Positions 4,575 through 63,277 of a stretch of DNA of 64,000 nt are shown here, one piece after another (the first letter of the stretch is position 1; every line of letters begins with the position of its first letter). The notes under the pieces are model-generated. The model was not told the DNA's origin. It saw only the letters and a list, made by a program, of their open reading frames with translations, and searched no databases. The translations under genes were made by a program, and so were the position numbers. The stretch is from positions 22,904-86,903 of the forward strand of contig CAAEUE010000014.1 of the NCBI GenBank assembly GCA_900759015.1, written 5' to 3'. Source of the DNA: Clostridia bacterium (GTDB lineage Bacteria; Bacillota; Clostridia; TANB77; CAG-508).

Positions 4575-4800
4575 CAAACAAAAATCGTCCTTATATAAAA
4601 ATATAAGGACGAATATAATCCGCGGTGCCACCTTAAGTTATTATAAAAATAATACACTCAATTAGTAGGGTAACCGCCTAACTTACGGTTTAGTTTTCAC
4701 TAAAAACATCTAAGAGTAGATTCGCATATAAATTTTATTTACTTACACCACCCGTAAACTCTCTTAAAAAATTAAATATGTTACTATTCTCTTATCAAAC
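4575..4800 (-). promoter_or_regulatory. T-box leader (probable Ser specifier) controlling the DUF1653-serS operon
   Basis: On the minus strand there is an AGAGAG stem I motif, a candidate specifier AAUCUAC (UCU=Ser), the T-box core AACUUAAGGUGGCACCGCGG (plus strand 4621-4640) and then a terminator hairpin CGUCCUUAUAU/AUAUAAGGACG with a U-run (4578-4612). Confidence 0.75.
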
Positions 4801-4884
4801 GTTTATATTAATATGTAACACATTTTAACATAATATGTATGAATATTCAATAAAAATTGTAAAAAATTATTATATGAATTTGAT

Positions 4885-21195: not shown

Positions 21196-21318
21196 TAGGG
21201 ATTTTAGGGCGTCCTGAGAAAAAAGAAATTTCGGGATTTGGGAACGTTCCTCAAATCCCTTTTTTGGGGCGCATCAAAAAAATATGAGGACGTTCTTCAA
21301 ATCCAGATTTTTTGAATG
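21196..21318. repeat. cluster of GGGACG-loop palindromic repeats (3-4 units)
   Basis: tagggattttagggcgtcctg, cgggatttgggaacgttcctcaaatccc, ggggcgcatc...gaggacgttcttcaaatcc. Confidence 0.7.
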
Positions 21319-26306: not shown

Positions 26307-26408
26307 AGGGAAAAAAGGACCGTCCCCGAATCCCTGGAAACCTCCCAAATCCCTGGAAACCTCCCAAATCCCTGGAAACGTCCCCAAACCCTTGGAACGT
26401 CCCAAAAA
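26307..26408. repeat. GGGACG-family repeat followed by 4 tandem ~19-bp units (aatccctggaaacctccca)
   Basis: agggaaaaaaggaccgtccccgaatccc then four contiguous units of 19, 19, 20 and 19 bp. There are no spacers, so this is not a CRISPR. Confidence 0.75.
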
Positions 26409-30383: not shown

Positions 30384-30424
30384 AGATGCACATAAAAAAA
30401 GACAAAATAAGGACAACACAGTTA

Positions 30425-30640
30425 TAAATTAGTCTTTAAGAGAGCTAGATGTATGCTGAAATTCTAGTAAGATAAAATATAATTGTTATCACCTTATATG
30501 TTGCGAAACTGAACTAATAGTAAGTTTTGACGTATATTCTGCGTTAAAGAAATTAGAGAGAATAACGTAAGTTATTAAATTAGGTGGTACCGCGGAATTA
30601 TGCCCTTTTCGTCCTAAACAGGATGAAAAGGGCTTTTTGA
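30425..30640 (+). promoter_or_regulatory. T-box leader (Ile specifier candidate AUU/AUC) of ileS
   Basis: AAGAGAG stem I, a GAAAUUCUAG loop and the T-box core AAAUUAGGUGGUACCGCGG (30577-30595). The terminator is GCCCUUUUCGUCC...GGAUGAAAAGGGC then UUUUU (30602-30638). Confidence 0.8.
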
Positions 30641-33861: not shown

Positions 33862-33947
33862 ATTTGGGGACGGTCCTCGCAGGGATTTGGGGACGTTCCT
33901 TAAATCCCTTTTTTGGACTTTAGGGACGGAGCTTAAAGTTCACTGGG
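33862..33947. repeat. cluster of GGGACG-loop palindromic repeats (3 units including a GAACTTT-stem variant)
   Basis: tttggggacggtcctcgcaggg, gggatttggggacgttccttaaatccc and gactttagggacggagcttaaagttcac. Confidence 0.7.
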
Positions 33948-45124: not shown

Positions 45125-45165
45125 GAAAAATCGACAGATTTTTCCTGAGTAACAAGATTAAGTTA
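45125..45165. repeat. second repeat type: GAAAAATCGA-N-ATTTTTC palindrome plus ACAAGATTAAG
   Basis: gaaaaatcgacagatttttcctgagtaacaagattaagtta. A close copy lies at 63164-63203. Confidence 0.6.
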
Positions 45166-48705: not shown

Positions 48706-48794
48706 GCAGATGTGGCGGAACTGGCAGACGCACAGGACTTAAAATCCTGCGAGGGTTAAACCTCGTGCCGGTTCGATTCCGGCCATCTGCACCA
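48706..48794 (+). tRNA. tRNA-Leu (anticodon UAA), type II with long variable arm, CCA encoded
   Basis: Acceptor gcagatg/catctgc, anticodon stem cagga/tcctg with loop cuUAAaa, variable hairpin cgagggttaaacctcg and T-arm ccggttcgattccgg. 89 nt. Confidence 0.9.
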
Positions 48795-49408: not shown

Positions 49409-49648
49409 GGATATTAAATTTTATTGCTAAAATGATTATAAACCTACCATTAAAAGGTAGTTTTTTTTGTGTGTCAAAATCAGGAGGAAAAGACAGACTC
49501 GCTTATTGGATAGTCTTAAAAGTGAAGTTCACTAAACAATAGAGAAAATATTGAAAAAGTAGATAATTAAAAATATATATGATAATATTTTAGTATAGAA
49601 TATTAATAAAAAGAAATTGATCAAACGATGATTGATAATGGAGAAAGT

Positions 49649-51532
49649 ATGGATTTTTTGATTGAAGAAGTAGTAAAAGAACTAAAAAAAATAAATAATG
49701 TAAAATTAACACAAAAAGACAAGAATAAAATTTATAAAAATTTTCCTATTCCAAAAGAACATAAAATTTTATGGGCAGATACTATTGGAAAAAGTATGAA
49801 ATATGGAATGGTCATTACTGATATAGGGCTATTTTTAAGAACAAATCCTACTATTATTAAGAAAAATAATAAAGAAGTAAAAAAAGAAGAAAAGGTAGCC
49901 AATAACTACTATTATTTTAAATGGGAATATTTTAATATAGAAGATTTTAAATTAAAAAGAAACTCTGAAAATGAATATGATGTTATATTTAATAGAAGAA
50001 GAATCCTAGAGATAAATGGTAAATCTAATTTTTTTATATGCTATGAAGATATTTATAATAAATCAATAAAAGAAGCAACAATGTCAGCAGAAAATATTTT
50101 TGCAGATTTAGAAGCGGTTATCCCTGAAAATTTTGCAAGAGTCAATAGCAAGCATGGTCATGGAGAGATGGCAGAAGAAGCACTAACCATATTAGATAAA
50201 TTAAAAGGGAATGAAGCAGAAGTAGTAGGCAGAACAAATCAAAAGAATGGTGCAGATCGTATTGTAAATGGTTTAGAGATTCAAACTAAATATTATAGTT
50301 CTGGAAAAGGATGTATAAATGCGTGTTTTGACAAGACAACAGGACAATTTAGGTATCAAAAATTAAATGGTAAGCCAATGCTAATAGAAGTACCAAAAGA
50401 TAAGTATATAGAGGCTGTTAATGAATTTAGAAAAAAGATTCTAGAGAACAAGGTACCAGGAGTAACAAATCCAGATGATGCCTCAAAATATGTTAAAAAA
50501 GGACAATTAACATATAAACAGGCTCTTAATCTTTGTAAACCAGGAACTATAGAATCCTTAAAATATGATGTTACAACTGGAGCAATAAATTGTTCTTTTG
50601 CTCTAGGAATAAGTTTTTTAACAACTTTCATTTTTGCATATTCAAAAAATAATAATAAAATAGAAGCAATGCAATATGCAATTGCTTCTGGAGTTCAAGT
50701 ATTTGGGTTATCATTTTTTGCACATATACTTACACAACAAGTTGCTAGGACAGAATTAACAAAACAACTTATACCATTAAGTAATTATATTGCACAAAAA
50801 ATGGGATATAAAGCAGTGCAAACTATTGTAAATTCAATTCGTACAATGGCTGGAAAAACAGCAATTTCTGGCTCAGCTGCTATGAAACAATTATCAAAGA
50901 TATTTAGAAATAATGTAGTTTCTTCTATCATTACTTTGGCAGTATTTTCTGTCCCTGATACATATAACTTATTAAAAAAGAGGTTATCAGCTGCACAATA
51001 TACAAAAAATATGCTTTCGTTAGTTGGAACGATTGCAACCGCTGGTTCTGGCACTGTAGCAGCATCTGTTGCTGCCACCAAAATAGGTGCAGTAACAGGA
51101 ACTACAATTGCTCCTGGAATAGGAACTGCTATTGGTATTGCAGGTGGACTTGCTGGAGGAGTAGCTGGTGGTGTAGCTATTAAAGCATTAGGAGATTATA
51201 TTAAGGAAGATGATACAGTAATTTTGTCGAGACTATTTAATGCTGTTGTAGAAAATCTAATATATGAATATATGTTATCAGAAAGTGAAATTAATGAACT
51301 AATAAAAGAATTAAACAATATAACAGCAAAAGAATTCAAAGAATTATTTACTGTAGTTATGGCTATAAGAAAACAAGAAAAAATTATTGAAGATTATTTA
51401 AGACCTTATTTTGAAAAGATAATACGAAAGAGAGCAGTTTTACCAGAACCAAAGCCAGAAGATATTATTGGATTTTTTGAAAAGTTCGAGAATGATAACA
51501 ACCTAAATAATGAAGAAAAGACCCCTAATTGA
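49649..51532 (+). CDS. large uncharacterised protein (627 aa): PH-like N-terminal domain, central globular domain, glycine-zipper multi-TM region, C-terminal helical tail
   Basis: RBS GGAGAAAG before the ATG at 49649. N-terminus KILWADTIGKSMKYGMVITDIGLFLR resembles bacterial PH domains. Residues ~330-530 carry 4-5 TM helices with GxxxG repeats (GIAGGLAGGVAGGVA). Confidence 0.6.
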   Translation: MDFLIEEVVKELKKINNVKLTQKDKNKIYKNFPIPKEHKILWADTIGKSMKYGMVITDIGLFLRTNPTIIKKNNKEVKKEEKVANNYYYFKWEYFNIEDFKLKRNSENEYDVIFNRRRILEINGKSNFFICYEDIYNKSIKEATMSAENIFADLEAVIPENFARVNSKHGHGEMAEEALTILDKLKGNEAEVVGRTNQKNGADRIVNGLEIQTKYYSSGKGCINACFDKTTGQFRYQKLNGKPMLIEVPKDKYIEAVNEFRKKILENKVPGVTNPDDASKYVKKGQLTYKQALNLCKPGTIESLKYDVTTGAINCSFALGISFLTTFIFAYSKNNNKIEAMQYAIASGVQVFGLSFFAHILTQQVARTELTKQLIPLSNYIAQKMGYKAVQTIVNSIRTMAGKTAISGSAAMKQLSKIFRNNVVSSIITLAVFSVPDTYNLLKKRLSAAQYTKNMLSLVGTIATAGSGTVAASVAATKIGAVTGTTIAPGIGTAIGIAGGLAGGVAGGVAIKALGDYIKEDDTVILSRLFNAVVENLIYEYMLSESEINELIKELNNITAKEFKELFTVVMAIRKQEKIIEDYLRPYFEKIIRKRAVLPEPKPEDIIGFFEKFENDNNLNNEEKTPN

Positions 51533-57776: not shown

Positions 57777-57799
57777 AAAAGTTGCGAGAAAATTAGAAA

Positions 57800-57842
57800 A
57801 ATAAAGCCCCCTGTTACCAGAAAGGTAATGGGGGCTTCATTG
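57800..57842 (-). terminator. GC-rich terminator for the 57891 gene
   Basis: aagcccccat...gggggctt stem with a T-run on the minus strand. Confidence 0.6.
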
Positions 57843-57890
57843 GTTTTGCTAAATTAGCACTCGCCATCGGTGGTGGCTTAACATAAGAGT

Positions 57891-58661
57891 TTAAAATACA
57901 AAATAGACGATACTGTTTTTTTGGTCATAAGTAAGTGAAGTCACTTTAGTACAAGCAGTTTGATTTGCAAGATAATCCATATATTGATAGCTTGTAGCTA
58001 TATTAGACAAATATGAAGGATCTGCTAAAAATGCTTCATGGTCTTTGCTTATCTGAGCTAAGACCTTTAAAGCTTCTTCATCTGTAAACTTTTTTGTGAA
58101 ACATTTACAGATATTTTTAGGAAGCCCAGTAGAAGACATAAATAACTTTAATTTCCTTGTATATTCTGCTTTAGCAGTGGCAATATTTACCATAATATAC
58201 TTTCGGTTTTTCTTGTTATTTCCTTCAATACGAAGTTCCCACGTATCATCGATTTCATAGACCACGAGATGAGAACCATAATATTTTAAGTTAACGGTTT
58301 TATACTCCGTTCCAATTTGACTTACTACAAATTCTGTTGTTTCAACATCGTGAACAATTCGTTCTCTTAGAATTGCCATTTCTTTTGCAGCTTTTTCTTT
58401 AGATATAACCTGCGTTACATCTTCTGTTTTTTGATCCTTTAAATGTAAGCAGTGTCTGTGAAAAGCAATTAACGAACTTGAAGGAGATACTTCCTTTTCT
58501 TTTCTTATCTTGTCGCTTTTGGTAACAATGTAGATATCTTCTGGGTTAAGAATATTTACAAGATAATAGTAAACTTTGCCATTATCTTCTATTATATAAA
58601 TATCACCAGAAATTGAGCCTACATATTCTGACCGTCCTTTACCTAAAAATACTTTCTCCAT
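57891..58661 (-). CDS. hypothetical protein (256 aa), moderately elevated GC
   Basis: Long ORF with no motif recognised. Flanked by the repeat and the GC-rich terminator. Confidence 0.5.
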   Translation of the reverse strand: MEKVFLGKGRSEYVGSISGDIYIIEDNGKVYYYLVNILNPEDIYIVTKSDKIRKEKEVSPSSSLIAFHRHCLHLKDQKTEDVTQVISKEKAAKEMAILRERIVHDVETTEFVVSQIGTEYKTVNLKYYGSHLVVYEIDDTWELRIEGNNKKNRKYIMVNIATAKAEYTRKLKLFMSSTGLPKNICKCFTKKFTDEEALKVLAQISKDHEAFLADPSYLSNIATSYQYMDYLANQTACTKVTSLTYDQKNSIVYFVF

Positions 58662-58766
58662 AAAACCCCTTTCTAATCAATTGATTACCATAAATTAAAC
58701 AGTTGCTAAATTGCTTTATAGGTTGTATTATAATATGAATATATAATTTTAGTAAAGAGGTAGGAA

Positions 58767-59712: not shown

Positions 59713-60210
59713 ATGCAGGATATAGAAGAGATTTATAATAATTATGCTCAAATAGTATATAAATACATATTCTGCTTAACCAAAAATAAAGAATTAAGTG
59801 AAGATATAGTACAAGAAACTTTCTTAGTAGCTGTTAAAAACATAAATAAATTTAGAGGAGAAAGTAAGATTTCTACATGGCTGTGTCAAATTGCAAAATT
59901 TATTTTGTATAAAGACATAAGAAAAAAAGAAAAGCAAAAAAATATATCTTTAGAAGATGTAGAAAATGAACTTATAACAGAAAATTCACTGGAAGAAAAT
60001 ATATTTTTACAAGAGGATAAGCTAGATTTATTAAAGAAAATTCAAAAGCTAAATGATGAAACAAAAAGCGTAATGTATTTAAAATTATTAGGTGGGCTAA
60101 AAAATGAAGAAATAGCAGAAGTAATGAATAAAACACCAAACTGGGTAAGAGTTACATATTTTAGAGGAAAGCAAAAAATAAAGGAGGATAAAGATGAAAA
60201 ACGAATGTGA
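59713..60210 (+). CDS. ECF (sigma-70 family) RNA polymerase sigma factor
   Basis: Region 2 (IVQETFLVAVKNINKF) and region 4 HTH (EEIAEVMNKTPNWVRVTYFRGKQKI). Confidence 0.85.
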   Translation: MQDIEEIYNNYAQIVYKYIFCLTKNKELSEDIVQETFLVAVKNINKFRGESKISTWLCQIAKFILYKDIRKKEKQKNISLEDVENELITENSLEENIFLQEDKLDLLKKIQKLNDETKSVMYLKLLGGLKNEEIAEVMNKTPNWVRVTYFRGKQKIKEDKDEKRM

Positions 60211-60859
60211 TATCGTTCAAGATTTACTATTTAGTTATAAAGATGGATGTTTAAAACAAGGTTCAAAAGAATTTGTAGAAAAACATTTAAAAAAATGTGA
60301 GAATTGTGCAAAAGTATATTCAGAAATGAATAATGAAGAAGAGCAATCTGATATTCCAAAAGATGAAATTGATTATTTAAAAAAGATAAAAAAGAAGATG
60401 AAAAAGAAAACAAAAATTATTATAGCGATTTCTGTTATATTAATTATTTTTATTATTTTGAATATTGCTGTATTCATTAATTATGATAAATATATAAGTG
60501 AAATGACAATATTTTTAGAAGATTCAATAACAGATGAAGAGCGAGCAGAGATAGAAAATGTAATAAAAGAAACAGATAAAAATGCTGAAATTACATATAA
60601 ATCAAAAGAAGATGCATTAAATAATATGAAGCAACAGTTTGCAGATAGACAAGATTTATTAACAGGATATGAAGGAGAGAATAATATATTTCCAGCATAT
60701 TATGAAGTAAATTCAAATAAAAAAGCGATTGAAGAGATAGAAGCAAAATTAATTAATAATGAAAAAATTAAAAATATAAGTAGTAGTAAAGGTGTAAATC
60801 CATATGAATTATTTTTTATGCAATATGTATATGTTCCATTAACAGGAAAAAATAAATAA
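60194..60859 (+). CDS. anti-sigma factor (zf-HC2 type) with TM helix and extracytoplasmic domain
   Basis: Overlaps the sigma gene by 17 nt. HLKKCENC zinc motif, one TM and an ~120-aa external domain. Confidence 0.7.
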   Translation: MKNECDIVQDLLFSYKDGCLKQGSKEFVEKHLKKCENCAKVYSEMNNEEEQSDIPKDEIDYLKKIKKKMKKKTKIIIAISVILIIFIILNIAVFINYDKYISEMTIFLEDSITDEERAEIENVIKETDKNAEITYKSKEDALNNMKQQFADRQDLLTGYEGENNIFPAYYEVNSNKKAIEEIEAKLINNEKIKNISSSKGVNPYELFFMQYVYVPLTGKNK

Positions 60860-60862
60860 AGT

Positions 60863-60915
60863 AACGCCCCTCTACACAGAAAGAAATTTATTTCTTGTGT
60901 AGAGGGGCGTTTTAT
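60863..60915. terminator. long GC-rich perfect hairpin, bidirectional terminator and left border of the GC-rich islet
   Basis: aacgcccctctacacagaaag...ctttctgtgtagaggggcgtt, a 20-bp stem. Confidence 0.75.
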
Positions 60916-60921
60916 GAGACC

Positions 60922-61887
60922 TTAAGCAACGTAGAAGTTGTTAAATGGATCTCGTATGGTTTCCTGCAGACCGATTAGGTCCAGAGTTTCCCCATTTTTG
61001 GAGAAGTATGAGTCTAGTTTGACCTTTTCTGGATCAAAGACAACCTTTATAGCAGTTTGCCTTTTTTCTTCGGCTTCCCGCTCTTCTGGGGTGAGTTCTT
61101 TGCTGGTGTCTGCTCCATATCTTTCATCTTTGTGTGAAAGATGTGTTGCAACATATTCTGCGTGGAAGTGGCTAGCAAATGTCCTTAATTGGACTTCGAT
61201 TGTTAAGCCACTCTTTGTTACAAACACCATATGAAGAGCTTGATAGCCCTTCTTTTTAGGAGCAACAAAATAGTCTTTGACATATTTTGCATATTCCGGG
61301 TAAATGAGCCCCTTTTGGGGAACATATACCTTTGGGAAAAGTTCCTGATTAAAGCCAAGGCCATTTTGTGGAGATGGCTTTATCAACTGGTAACCCTTCC
61401 GTATGACGAAGAAGGCGATTACATTGTTAGCTACTTCGTAGAGTTGACTAATTGACTTTTCATCATCATATCGGCTTGTTCCTATTACTATCCTGAAGCC
61501 CAACTCGTCGTTGATAGAGTATGGATCAAGACCATCATAGATGAATGTTCGTACTTTCTCTAAAAATGCGACATAGTTTTTTAGTCGGCCAGAAATGGAA
61601 CAAGGAATCTTTAGACTTGCTAAAAATTTTTTTAATTCAATAATCTCCTGTTCCAATTCCGCTAAGGAACTGTAATTATAATAGCGGTTCAAGTAGTTTT
61701 CGAGCTTCGTGTGATACATGTCCAAATAATTTGGTATGAATTCATTCCCACGAAGCTTGTCTGCTTCGCTCATTACTTCATCTAGATACAGGCGTTGAAC
61801 CTGTATTAGTGAACCAACTCCCCGATAGAGGATTGGGGAAACATCTGGAAACCAGATGTTTTGCACGGTTTGTACTTTGTCGGACAT
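60922..61887 (-). CDS. RelA/SpoT-domain nucleotidyltransferase (small alarmone synthetase / toxSAS-like), 321 aa, on a ~40% GC islet
   Basis: Synthetase motifs SGRLKN (G[RK]xK), ELGFRIV (DxxGxRI), GYQALH...EVQLRT and HAEY. RBS AGGAGG 8 nt before the ATG at 61887. The ORF-track start at 62142 has no RBS. Confidence 0.8.
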   Translation of the reverse strand: MSDKVQTVQNIWFPDVSPILYRGVGSLIQVQRLYLDEVMSEADKLRGNEFIPNYLDMYHTKLENYLNRYYNYSSLAELEQEIIELKKFLASLKIPCSISGRLKNYVAFLEKVRTFIYDGLDPYSINDELGFRIVIGTSRYDDEKSISQLYEVANNVIAFFVIRKGYQLIKPSPQNGLGFNQELFPKVYVPQKGLIYPEYAKYVKDYFVAPKKKGYQALHMVFVTKSGLTIEVQLRTFASHFHAEYVATHLSHKDERYGADTSKELTPEEREAEEKRQTAIKVVFDPEKVKLDSYFSKNGETLDLIGLQETIRDPFNNFYVA

Positions 61888-62095
61888 AAATTGTCCTCCT
61901 TTCTTTAATTCAATAGTTTTTGGTCTATATATTATATCACATTTACATAAAAAAGTAAAAAATAAAAATTTAGCAATATTAAGTAATAACGAAAATATAC
62001 AAATATAATGTATATATTGTTCTAGACTATTATGTAAATTTGTGGTAAAATAGTTAAGATAACATGTAAACCAAGCTATAAAGAGAGGTAAGAGT

Positions 62096-62371
62096 ATGAA
62101 ACAAAAAGAAACAACAAATTGGGAACAAGTTAAAGAAAGCAACGCTAAAAAATTTGCCGAAGATTGGGCAAATGAGATGGAGCGGATGCTAAATGAGGAT
62201 GCGACGTTGACAATAGAAGATGTGGCGTTTGAAGCGTTTGAAAGCTGTCTTCAGAAGAATTCCATTACTGGACAGGAAGAGTATGAAGCAGCGGGCCTCT
62301 TGGGGCAATACTGGTATAAAGGCAATGCCTTGTATCAGTTATGGATTGATGGCGGGATAATTCCCGATTAA
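62096..62371 (+). CDS. hypothetical acidic protein (91 aa), divergent from the RelA/SpoT gene
   Basis: RBS AGAGAGG. About 40% GC. Confidence 0.5.
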   Translation: MKQKETTNWEQVKESNAKKFAEDWANEMERMLNEDATLTIEDVAFEAFESCLQKNSITGQEEYEAAGLLGQYWYKGNALYQLWIDGGIIPD

Positions 62372-62477
62372 GGCATTAAAAATGGGGGATATTTTCTTTT
62401 TGGAGGAGATATCCCCTCTATTTTTATATAAAATATGTTATAATATATAAGATTTTTGTTGAACAAGGAGGTAGCAT

Positions 62478-63140
62478 ATGAAAGTAATTAACATCAGAAA
62501 AAACGATTCATCAAGAGGGGCTCTTATACGGTTAGAGGGACTTCAAGGCGAAATCTGCGTAACATATTCAGACGGTGAATTAGAACTTTTACCACCACTA
62601 GATATGGATTTGCTAGAATTTGCAAAATTGATACAGCATTCTTTTGAGGGTAAAATTGATATTCTTCCGAAAGCAGAAGAATACTTTGAAGCAAAAATTT
62701 CATCTATATCATTCGTTTTTAAGGGCATAGGCATTACTGTAAATGCTGAAAATTCTAACTGGTATAATACGATTAAAGCGTATACAATTGGAAAGGAAAA
62801 AGCCCAATATCCAGACTCATTTATAGTTAAGCTGGATGAAGCAACAGAAATGTTTTATAAAAGCAAAGATGCACGTGAAGTATGGATGAATACTATAGGA
62901 TGTAAAAATTATGAGACCATATTAAATGTTGCTCGTAGATGGGCGAAATTGATGCAATTCTATATGAAAGAGGAGCATCGGAAACTGGAAGACATTGTAG
63001 AAGAGTCATATAAACAGGCAGTGCTCAATGAAGATTCTGAAACTACAAGATTACTTGCTACAGATGCATTAGTTTTGTGCTGGAAGTATGGTACTGAACT
63101 AAAAGAATATCTTTCGACTAAGAAAGATAGAACGGCCTAA
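62478..63140 (+). CDS. hypothetical protein (220 aa), about 40% GC
   Basis: RBS AAGGAGG 6 nt upstream. No recognisable motif. Confidence 0.55.
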   Translation: MKVINIRKNDSSRGALIRLEGLQGEICVTYSDGELELLPPLDMDLLEFAKLIQHSFEGKIDILPKAEEYFEAKISSISFVFKGIGITVNAENSNWYNTIKAYTIGKEKAQYPDSFIVKLDEATEMFYKSKDAREVWMNTIGCKNYETILNVARRWAKLMQFYMKEEHRKLEDIVEESYKQAVLNEDSETTRLLATDALVLCWKYGTELKEYLSTKKDRTA

Positions 63141-63157
63141 TGGCCGTTTTTTTATTG
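63133..63157 (+). terminator. terminator overlapping the stop of the 62478 gene
   Basis: acggcctaatggccgt then T7. Confidence 0.7.
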
Positions 63158-63163
63158 CGGTAG

Positions 63164-63203
63164 AAAAATCGAAAATTTTTCTGGAACAACAAGATTAAGC
63201 TAA
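63164..63203. repeat. copy of the GAAAAATCGA...ACAAGATTAAG element (right border of the islet)
   Basis: gaaaaatcgaaaatttttctggaacaacaagattaagcta, compared with 45125-45165. Confidence 0.6.
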
Positions 63204-63277
63204 TATATTCGTAAAAATTGTAAAGCTACTTTTATTATAAGAATAAAACGCTGATATATAAACGATTAAAATGATAT

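Follow-up and report, generated by a model that had tools for sequence, protein, structure and literature searches.

Is a GC-rich patch that carries a gene for a RelA/SpoT-domain enzyme and two small divergent genes a mobile toxin-antitoxin islet, or is it a resident part of the chromosome in which only some of the genes come and go? The question is raised by positions 60,863 to 63,203 of a 64,000-nucleotide stretch of contig CAAEUE010000014.1 from a Clostridia bacterium, hereafter the window. The patch includes a gene for a 321-amino acid small alarmone synthetase (SAS) and, transcribed in the opposite direction, genes for proteins of 91 and 220 amino acids, named p91 and p220. An initial annotation, made from the letters alone, had located these three open reading frames (ORFs) correctly with regard to coordinates and sizes, and had proposed a horizontally acquired, toxSAS-like enzyme with two unknown partners. 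Our reading is that the SAS is fixed in its clade and is not the toxin of a mobile toxSAS toxin-antitoxin pair, and that the partner genes, which belong to the Tad4 family, are a variable element; we give these claims taken together a probability of about 0.55. They rest on observations of domain identity, synteny, the gain and loss of genes, divergence between strains and base composition.

Along the window, ddl is followed by orf256 (minus strand), genes for a DUF1848 protein, for an extracytoplasmic function (ECF) sigma factor and for an anti-sigma factor with zf-HC2 and FtsX_ECD domains, a hairpin, the SAS gene (minus strand), 208 bp with divergent promoters, p91 and its terminator, p220 and its terminator, a short repeat, csoR and copZ. 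The central features are as follows.

60922-61887, minus strand, SAS gene, 321 amino acids, identified as a small alarmone synthetase by Pfam PF04607, motifs, fold and synteny
61888-62095, no strand, divergent promoter region, one of the segments that differ most between strains (59-81% identity)
61959-61931, minus strand, SAS promoter, TTTACT-17-TG-n-TATAAT
62023-62051, plus strand, p91 promoter, TAGACT-17-TG-n-TAAAAT
62096-62371, plus strand, p91 gene, 91 amino acids, single-domain Tad4-family protein (PF25186), 41-86% identical between strains with flanks at 97-100%
62384-62417, plus strand, p91 intrinsic terminator, conserved in relatives
62478-63140, plus strand, p220 gene, 220 amino acids, two-domain protein with a Tad4-family C-terminal half
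63129-63150, plus strand, p220 intrinsic terminator with a GGCC stem

The distribution of the SAS is narrow and its location constant. Close homologues form only 35 clusters at 90% identity, all of about 320 amino acids, and the family was present in 11 of 185,579 species-representative genomes, every one of them (11/11) an uncultured 'Clostridium sp.' or Clostridia metagenome-assembled genome from the gut, such as CAG:354 and UMGS1570. In every contig examined, i.e. the 11 species representatives and dozens of metagenome contigs, the gene is located beside (csoR)-copZ-copA, and the identities of these syntenic proteins reach down to 56-70%. This constancy of the site speaks against the idea that the SAS was horizontally acquired. 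The gene is under purifying selection, with a ratio of nonsynonymous to synonymous divergence (dN/dS) of about 0.05. At least five species (loci L010, L023, L025, L026 and L027; homologous loci are referred to by L numbers) have the SAS alone, without a Tad4-like neighbor and with the catalytic residues intact. Since it persists intact without a partner in these lineages the SAS is not an obligate toxin, and the proposal that the divergent 220-amino acid gene is its trans antitoxin is not supported by the comparison. A tblastn search of 50,697 phage records returned only partial matches of 25-44% identity for the SAS and none for p91; scans of IMG/VR found relatives of neither the SAS nor the Tad4-like family, p220 included. 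Neither mobility genes nor relatives of phage or plasmid type were found for the SAS locus, and an origin from a phage or another mobile element was rejected after the phage-record and IMG/VR searches.

The patch had been regarded as foreign on account of its composition. As claimed, the G+C content of the SAS (40.0%), p91 (41.7%) and p220 (34.5%) genes is above that of the window (27.6%), and the G+C content at third codon positions (GC3) is 0.40, 0.42 and 0.27, respectively, against 0.10-0.20 in flanking genes. Values so far above the backbone, with sharp boundaries, could indicate an islet that was recently acquired from a donor of higher G+C content and whose composition has not yet approached that of the host. 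We consider this explanation very improbable, and for the SAS and p91 it is already contradicted: the genes, the site and the raised GC3 are alike in every relative, even in other species in which the flanking genes differ by a synonymous divergence (dS) of 0.5-0.9 and the SAS by a dN of 0.23-0.5. In relatives the GC3 of the SAS is 0.22-0.43 compared to 0.09-0.15 for ddl, and distant members of the subfamily that reside elsewhere in the chromosome show 0.21-0.32 versus 0.10-0.18. The Tad4-like genes of L053 and L057, and a 251-amino acid gene present there, are likewise raised. Because the excess is found in every SAS-subfamily lineage examined, recent transfer does not account for it. Neither an integrase nor a tRNA gene nor an att site was found at the borders of the cluster, and only the 820-bp cassette that carries p220 and the gene orf256 behave as recently gained or lost. 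According to the initial annotation, a housekeeping enzyme would be recognized by syntenic orthologues that have the same extensions and a normal G+C content; the synteny with the same extensions was found, but GC3 is raised everywhere. Candidate explanations for the excess are selection for rare G- or C-ending codons that limit expression, or repeated import of alleles. As a general observation, in all lineages examined the GC3 of the SAS subfamily is about twice that of the neighboring genes, in host genomes of 25-31% G+C. Examples are the following.

L060, 5001-5885, SAS with raised GC3
L063, 4001-4897 and 5059-6144, two SAS genes with raised GC3
L062, 4001-4924, SAS with raised GC3
L010, 6001-6960, SAS with raised GC3

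The variable part of the locus is the slot between the SAS gene and csoR. Contrary to their first description as unknown, both partners belong to the Pfam family PF25186 ('Type I Thoeris inhibitor Tad4'), and the two are paralogues. p91 matches the family with an E value of 4e-14 (53.2 bits, cut-off 25) and residues 146-212 of p220 with 2.5e-7 (31.4 bits, cut-off 25); both also match phrog_9822, and all 16 partner proteins collected from relatives match PF25186 (16/16, best E value 2.6e-18). Alignment of p91, an acidic protein (pI 4.3), with the C-terminal half of p220 shows that W136, W155, A156, L198 and W202 are invariant. The model of p220 (mean predicted local distance difference test score, pLDDT, 73) consists of a beta-rich N-terminal domain (about residues 1-110), for which relatives of known function were not detectable, and the helical Tad4-family domain (about 130-219). 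It had no significant fold match in PDB or BFVD, the best being antizyme with an E value of 0.34, and sequence and profile searches of PDB with p91 and with a Tad4-like profile found nothing. The number of Tad4-like genes beside the SAS varies from none to two, and short and long forms can substitute for one another, as listed below.

None: L010, L023, L025, L026, L027
One of about 88-100 amino acids: L001, L007, L014, L018-L022, L028
One of 220 amino acids: L054
One of 217 amino acids: L057
One of 91 and one of 220 amino acids: the window, L041-L052
One of 216 and one of 224 amino acids: L053

Within the partnered lineages a Tad4-like gene is present in all relatives; it is the p220 cassette and orf256 alone that are present or absent between strains. 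Comparison of the genomic context, which the initial annotation had proposed as a way of finding the ends of the islet, did define the ends of these two segments, but the SAS itself is present throughout. Their limits are as follows.

About 62425-63245, plus strand, p220 cassette, about 820 bp, strain-specific, delimited by alignment breakpoints
57891-58661, minus strand, orf256, 256 amino acids, GC3 0.23, within an insertion or deletion at 57780-58690 between near-identical strains

The cassette is a clean insertion that separates the p91 terminator from the csoR promoter; it includes an extended -10 promoter (TGTTATAAT), a Shine-Dalgarno sequence, p220, its terminator and the short repeat. 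It is identical in L041-L052 and L067 and absent from L001, L007, L018, L020, L022 and L028; the exact p220 protein is indexed in 50 collection blocks of metagenome strains. The protein encoded by orf256 had no match in Pfam, PHROG, PADLOC or NCBIfam, and its PDB matches to nanobody chains (best E value 0.005) were judged spurious. It is 43-45% identical to the product of the 251-amino acid gene that, in L053 and L057, immediately follows the SAS gene in the same orientation. As this homologue adjoins the SAS, the ancestral cluster may have held three genes, and by this sequence relationship orf256 may be a former third member. In the clade that lacks partners a gene for an EsaA-like membrane protein, related to type VII secretion, lies about 5.5 kb from the SAS (L010 12525-12960 and equivalents), and these organisms may therefore have a type VII secretion system, which bears on any reading of the Tad4-like genes as immunity genes.

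What kind of enzyme, then, is the SAS? It matches Pfam RelA_SpoT (PF04607) with 48.3 bits (cut-off 27) over residues 201-255 only and TIGR00691 partially; RelA_SpoT was the sole domain type detected with Pfam and NCBIfam, with no HD, TGS or ACT domain in the 321 residues. The set of nucleotide pyrophosphokinase motifs noted initially is indeed there and does not vary within the family: SGRLKN (R101, K103), NDELGFRI (D127, R132), GYQALH (Y215, Q216, H219), EVQLRT (E231, Q233, R235) and HAEY. The residues R101, K103, D127, R132, Y215, Q216, H219, E231 and Q233 do not vary, either in the close family or in relatives of 32-38% identity, while R235 is invariant in the former and nearly so among the latter. 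In the AlphaFold model (mean pLDDT 66) the core scores 80-95 and both ends are disordered. Foldseek aligned this model with the N-terminal domain of Rel, RelP and RelQ at probability 1.0, and sequence and profile searches of PDB returned Rel, RelA, RelP and RelQ only. RelQ and RelP (SAS1 and SAS2 of the Firmicutes) and the synthetase domain of long Rel are thus the best sequence and structure matches; they share the single RelA/SpoT synthetase domain, the motifs and the fold, and the SAS described here is, like RelQ and RelP, chromosomal and vertically inherited.

It differs from RelQ and RelP in being about 100 residues longer; extra sequence at both ends had been recognized initially. The additional sequence consists of conserved N-terminal helices with an FPD motif, an insert of about 40 amino acids that separates the DxxGxR motif from GYQxLH, and a C-terminal tail conserved as FDPEKV...DLIGL...DPFNNF. 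Further differences are the raised GC3 and the hypervariability of the alleles in this clade. The extensions had been thought to be possible sensor or antitoxin modules. A profile search of 1.84 billion representative proteins (E<1e-10) defined a wider subfamily of 179 clusters, nearly all of 280-320 amino acids, from low-GC metagenome contigs; the members that could be traced to named genomes were from Clostridia. When aligned, they have in common not only the catalytic motifs but also the N-terminal helices with the FPD motif, the insert and an FD..KV...D.iGL...DPFN tail. Because they are common to this broad clostridial subfamily, the extensions are hallmarks of it and not recent fusions. 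Three distant members could be placed in context: P0060 and P0220 reside in a U32 peptidase/Methyltransf_3/BipA neighborhood of housekeeping type that has no Tad4-like gene, and P0052 adjoins genes for RF-2, ParE and JetA/JetD. In L063 (4001-6144) two tandem SAS paralogues of 298 and 361 amino acids are flanked by a TPR/U32-peptidase block and a Methyltransf_3-BipA block. The proteins of L029-L040 were tried as an outgroup and rejected, as they are ordinary long Rel proteins of about 745 amino acids matched via the catalytic motif only.

The fixed part of the locus is, in our reading, a stand-alone RelA/SpoT synthetase of a clostridial subfamily of about 280-320 amino acids. It possibly corresponds to 'cloRel', a Firmicutes-restricted SAS subgroup that has been named but is uncharacterized (Atkinson et al. 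2011, PMC3153485); the likeness lies in the description of cloRel as an SAS group of Firmicutes. Judging from its Rel-like acceptor-site motif, in which VKDYFVAPKKKGYQALH...EVQLRT aligns with FKDYIAMPKPNMYQSLH...EVQIRT of B. subtilis Rel, the enzyme most probably uses ATP to pyrophosphorylate a guanine nucleotide at the 3'-OH and so makes a (pp)pGpp-type alarmone. Being vertically inherited and tolerated alone, the SAS would be a conditional signaling enzyme and not an addictive toxin.

A different possibility is that the locus is a conflict system of the toxSAS type, in which the SAS would be a phage-triggered toxin that arrests growth through (pp)pApp synthesis or tRNA pyrophosphorylation and is restrained by the Tad4-like proteins, by its own C-terminal tail as in CapRel, or by both. 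There is a general resemblance: as in toxSAS systems (FaRel, FaRel2/ATfaRel2, PhRel, PhRel2, CapRel), the synthetase is a stand-alone one that adjoins small, potentially neutralizing proteins, the neighbors here come from a family of enzyme-plugging inhibitors, and conflict loci typically show old hypervariable alleles and an atypical composition. The C-terminal tail, although predicted to be unstructured, is highly conserved, p91 is very acidic while the core of the SAS is basic, and the SAS has weak matches to the RelA/SpoT models PADLOC PDC-S33 and phrog_4773. These matches, however, are limited to the catalytic motif of about 50 residues, and membership of the SAS in either family was rejected. 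toxSAS modules are conserved two- or three-gene operons in which toxin and antitoxin are on the same strand and often overlap (PMC7229694), whereas here the three genes have separate extended -10 promoters and separate terminators, each with a good Shine-Dalgarno sequence, and the SAS is divergent from its partners. In this respect the initial annotation was right to conclude that the locus is not a classic same-operon pair.

Other properties separate the SAS from the toxSAS enzymes. The locus is fixed, the partnerless SAS survives in five species, and the Tad4 family has never been reported as toxSAS antitoxins. By sequence and fold the SAS is closest to Rel, RelP and RelQ; CapRel and FaRel2 were not among the PDB matches listed by sequence profile and by fold, and these matches gave no detectable closer kinship to solved toxSAS structures. 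tRNA-modifying toxSAS enzymes are described with strongly basic RNA-binding grooves (PMC11559606), while the SAS as a whole is not basic (pI 6.1, net charge -3), and this overall charge does not suggest a comparable tRNA-binding surface. With regard to CapRel-SJ46, a fused toxin-antitoxin and phage sensor, the likeness consists of a RelA/SpoT synthetase followed by a potentially regulatory C-terminal extension. The tail of the SAS differs in comprising only about 45 residues (276-321) with a pLDDT below 50, no domain match and no zinc-finger-like pattern; the check for an antitoxin fold detected no CapRel-like structure. The tail and the N-terminus are, moreover, common to distant relatives in Tad4-free contexts, two of which are of housekeeping type. 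The Tas1/Tis1 pair, a (p)ppApp-synthetase effector of a type VI secretion system and its immunity protein, is alike in combining a RelA/SpoT-fold enzyme with an inhibitor, but the structural match to Tas1 is marginal (E value 3.8e-3) and the SAS has neither a secretion domain nor a secretion-system context. On balance we regard a toxSAS-type system as improbable.

If the SAS does not need its neighbors, what might they do? Tad4, according to articles that cite Yirmiya et al. 2025 (PMC13402655), is a phage protein that binds the TIR domain of ThsB and occludes its active site by means of a flexible loop. p91 and p220 resemble it in their membership of PF25186 and as small helical proteins, and differ from it in that they are chromosomal and syntenic, not encoded by a phage or a recognizable mobile element, are located beside an SAS and not in an anti-defense cluster, and have a long form with an additional N-terminal beta domain. 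By analogy with the plugging of ThsB, the Tad4-like proteins would be stoichiometric inhibitors of an enzyme that uses nucleotides or NAD. The slot holds zero to two independently transcribed genes of this family, in a short form of about 90 amino acids and a long form of about 220 with the extra beta domain, which strains gain, lose and exchange by recombination. We favor the divergently transcribed SAS as the target, on which the inhibitors could act as a non-obligate brake that sets the threshold of alarmone synthesis, although this assignment is tentative and carries clearly less than even odds. There is a precedent for occlusion of the active site of an SAS in the antitoxin of FaRel2, ATfaRel2, which blocks ATP binding (PMC11559606) and is in spirit like an active-site plug.

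Divergence was measured against strains whose flanking proteins are 97-100% identical to those of the window, with a flank dS of 0.02-0.25. In this near-clonal background the SAS is 83-94% identical, with a dN of 0.04-0.11 (about 0.08). Of the six diverged strain backgrounds, four (L001-type, L007, L020 and L022) show a dS of the SAS from 1.4 up to saturation, and L018/L019 and L028 one of 0.34-0.46; p91 is 50-86% identical, with a dN of up to 0.36. Sliding comparison over 100 bp revealed a mosaic in which blocks of 99% identity adjoin blocks of 71%, within a tract that extends from about 60300, in the extracellular half of the anti-sigma factor, to about 63250 in the csoR promoter. Identity is lowest across the intergenic region and p91 (51-77%) and higher across the SAS (62-90%), and the divergence tapers off within the anti-sigma gene. 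As the dS of the SAS is only 1-3 times the flank value in the partnerless clade, extreme divergence of the SAS goes with the presence of Tad4-like genes. Gain, loss and exchange of these genes make the whole SAS-to-csoR tract a mosaic that is composed of old alleles. With regard to the anti-sigma gene itself (60194-60859, plus strand, zf-HC2 plus FtsX extracellular domain), it is 80-88% identical between strains, unlike its cognate ECF sigma factor (98-100%), and its divergence is concentrated in the 3' extracellular half that adjoins the hypervariable tract.

The same pattern could also arise if the Tad4-like genes had nothing to do with the SAS and were hypervariable inhibitors of TIR- or NADase-type enzymes, belonging either to a Thoeris-like system of the cell or to incoming toxins, in a recombination-prone slot beside a fast-evolving SAS; the divergence of SAS alleles would then be hitch-hiking with selected Tad4-like genes. 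The only characterized member of the family binds the TIR domain of ThsB. The partner genes vary in copy number, are gained and lost, and have their own promoters and terminators; the peak of divergence lies over the intergenic region and p91 and not over the SAS, whose alleles are discordant with those of the partner; and the SAS is viable alone and not hypervariable where the partner is absent. A 197-amino acid long form located 5 kb from the SAS in L028 is also in keeping with an independent function. On the other hand, there is no TIR or NADase gene among the annotated genes (the Pfam annotation covered about 44-64 kb of the window), Tad4-like genes of the long and the short form adjoin the SAS in four deep lineages despite different genes on its other side, and the GC3 excess is common to all three genes of the cluster. 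A target of the TIR or NADase type is in our opinion possible, at odds well below even and no different from those of the SAS. Adjacency does not decide between the two targets, because it is effectively one inherited arrangement.

Returning to the reading of a clade-fixed SAS with variable Tad4-like neighbors, several observations weigh against it or against the functional link that we favor. The association of the SAS with Tad4-like genes comes close to one syntenic lineage, and hence to a single evolutionary observation, and csoR-copZ-copA is equally conserved beside them. In L028 the long Tad4-like gene is 5 kb away from the SAS. Identities of SAS and p91 alleles are discordant (94% and 64%, respectively, in L018; 87% and 85% in L001), and nothing indicates that the two co-evolve at an interface. 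The explanation that we favor does not account for the family-wide GC3 excess. Confidence in the SAS model is low in its N- and C-terminal parts, and the product of the enzyme could be (pp)pApp or modified tRNA.

A more far-reaching version of the favored link would be that the SAS and the Tad4-fold proteins form an undescribed enzyme-inhibitor conflict module, in which the Tad4 family plugs the nucleotide pocket of the SAS, orf256 is a third component and phages drive diversification, and that phage Tad4 is one branch of an older cellular family of active-site plugs, which has switched targets among unrelated enzymes that use nucleotides or NAD. We consider it unlikely that all of this holds. 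If the SAS is indeed clade-fixed and the Tad4-like genes its variable neighbors, the locus defines an uncharacterized, clade-wide SAS subfamily with conserved additional elements in abundant uncultured gut Clostridia, one that should not be mistaken for another mobile toxSAS. The old mosaic alleles in a near-clonal backbone and the persistent GC3 excess in genomes of 25-28% G+C could reflect selection on expression level or balancing selection. A chromosomal, hypervariable slot of homologues of phage anti-defense proteins also poses the question of where such proteins originate and what the targets of their cellular relatives are.

The remaining features of the patch concern its borders, which were described initially as a perfect 20-bp hairpin and a repeat shared with the tyrS locus.

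60863-60911, no strand, hairpin between the anti-sigma gene (plus strand) and the SAS gene (minus strand), bidirectional intrinsic terminator
63163-63199, plus strand, short repeat, GAAAAATCGA-N3-TTTTTC...AACAAGATTAAG, located 3'-terminally in the p220 cassette
45125-45165, plus strand, second, imperfect copy of the repeat, after a GGGACG-type terminator hairpin, between the gene for a 228-amino acid membrane protein and the 3' end of tyrS

The hairpin is real, with a free energy of -33.5 kcal/mol (z = -9.4), but it is not perfect: its stem has 16 perfect base pairs (60863-60878 with 60896-60911) and four more past a one-base bulge. It is kept through compensatory changes in L018, L014 and L010. 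Similarly, the repeat does occur in two copies but these are not identical, matching at about 45 of 55 positions with an insertion or deletion. The core GAAAAATCGA-N3/4-TTTTTC was found twice against 0.00 expected. The repeat accompanies only this p220 allele, with a degenerate version after the p220 homologue of L054, and had no Rfam match at the gathering score, two sub-threshold matches being at chance level. That it is the end of a dispersed mobile element was rejected, since a metagenome-wide scan found only the same locus; also rejected was the idea that the 45-kb copy is a relic of a former adjacency to the SAS cluster through a TraX gene, the arrangement of L053 and L057, since the 228-amino acid gene is not TraX.

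The GGGACG repeat that had been noticed next to the 45-kb copy is part of a dispersed palindromic hairpin element resembling repetitive extragenic palindromes (REP-like), with a consensus of about AGGGATTTnGGGGACGTTCCTTAAATCCCT. GGGACG occurs 13 times in the window against 1.3 expected, a number reached in none of 100 shuffles (0/100). The elements are mostly located in intergenic regions and terminators, sometimes in tandem, at 2913, 4894, 11754, 14461, 14548, 26321-26403, 33867-33928, 45090 and 63978, with a degenerate copy near 21241; one is found ahead of the border repeat's 45-kb copy, and copZ is closely followed by another.

A hidden Markov model (HMM) search of all ORFs found no second SAS and no further Tad4-like gene in the window. 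Five other ORFs, upstream of the patch, had no Pfam match at E<=0.001.

49628-51532, plus strand, 634 amino acids
51558-52007, minus strand, 149 amino acids
52041-52406, plus strand, 121 amino acids
48241-48621, plus strand, 126 amino acids
44383-45069, plus strand, 228 amino acids

No known Rfam RNA family was detected in or beside the GC-rich patch; elsewhere in the window, Rfam identified two T-box leaders and one tRNA gene at the gathering threshold, at 4602-4807 (minus strand), 30396-30619 (plus strand) and 48706-48791 (plus strand).

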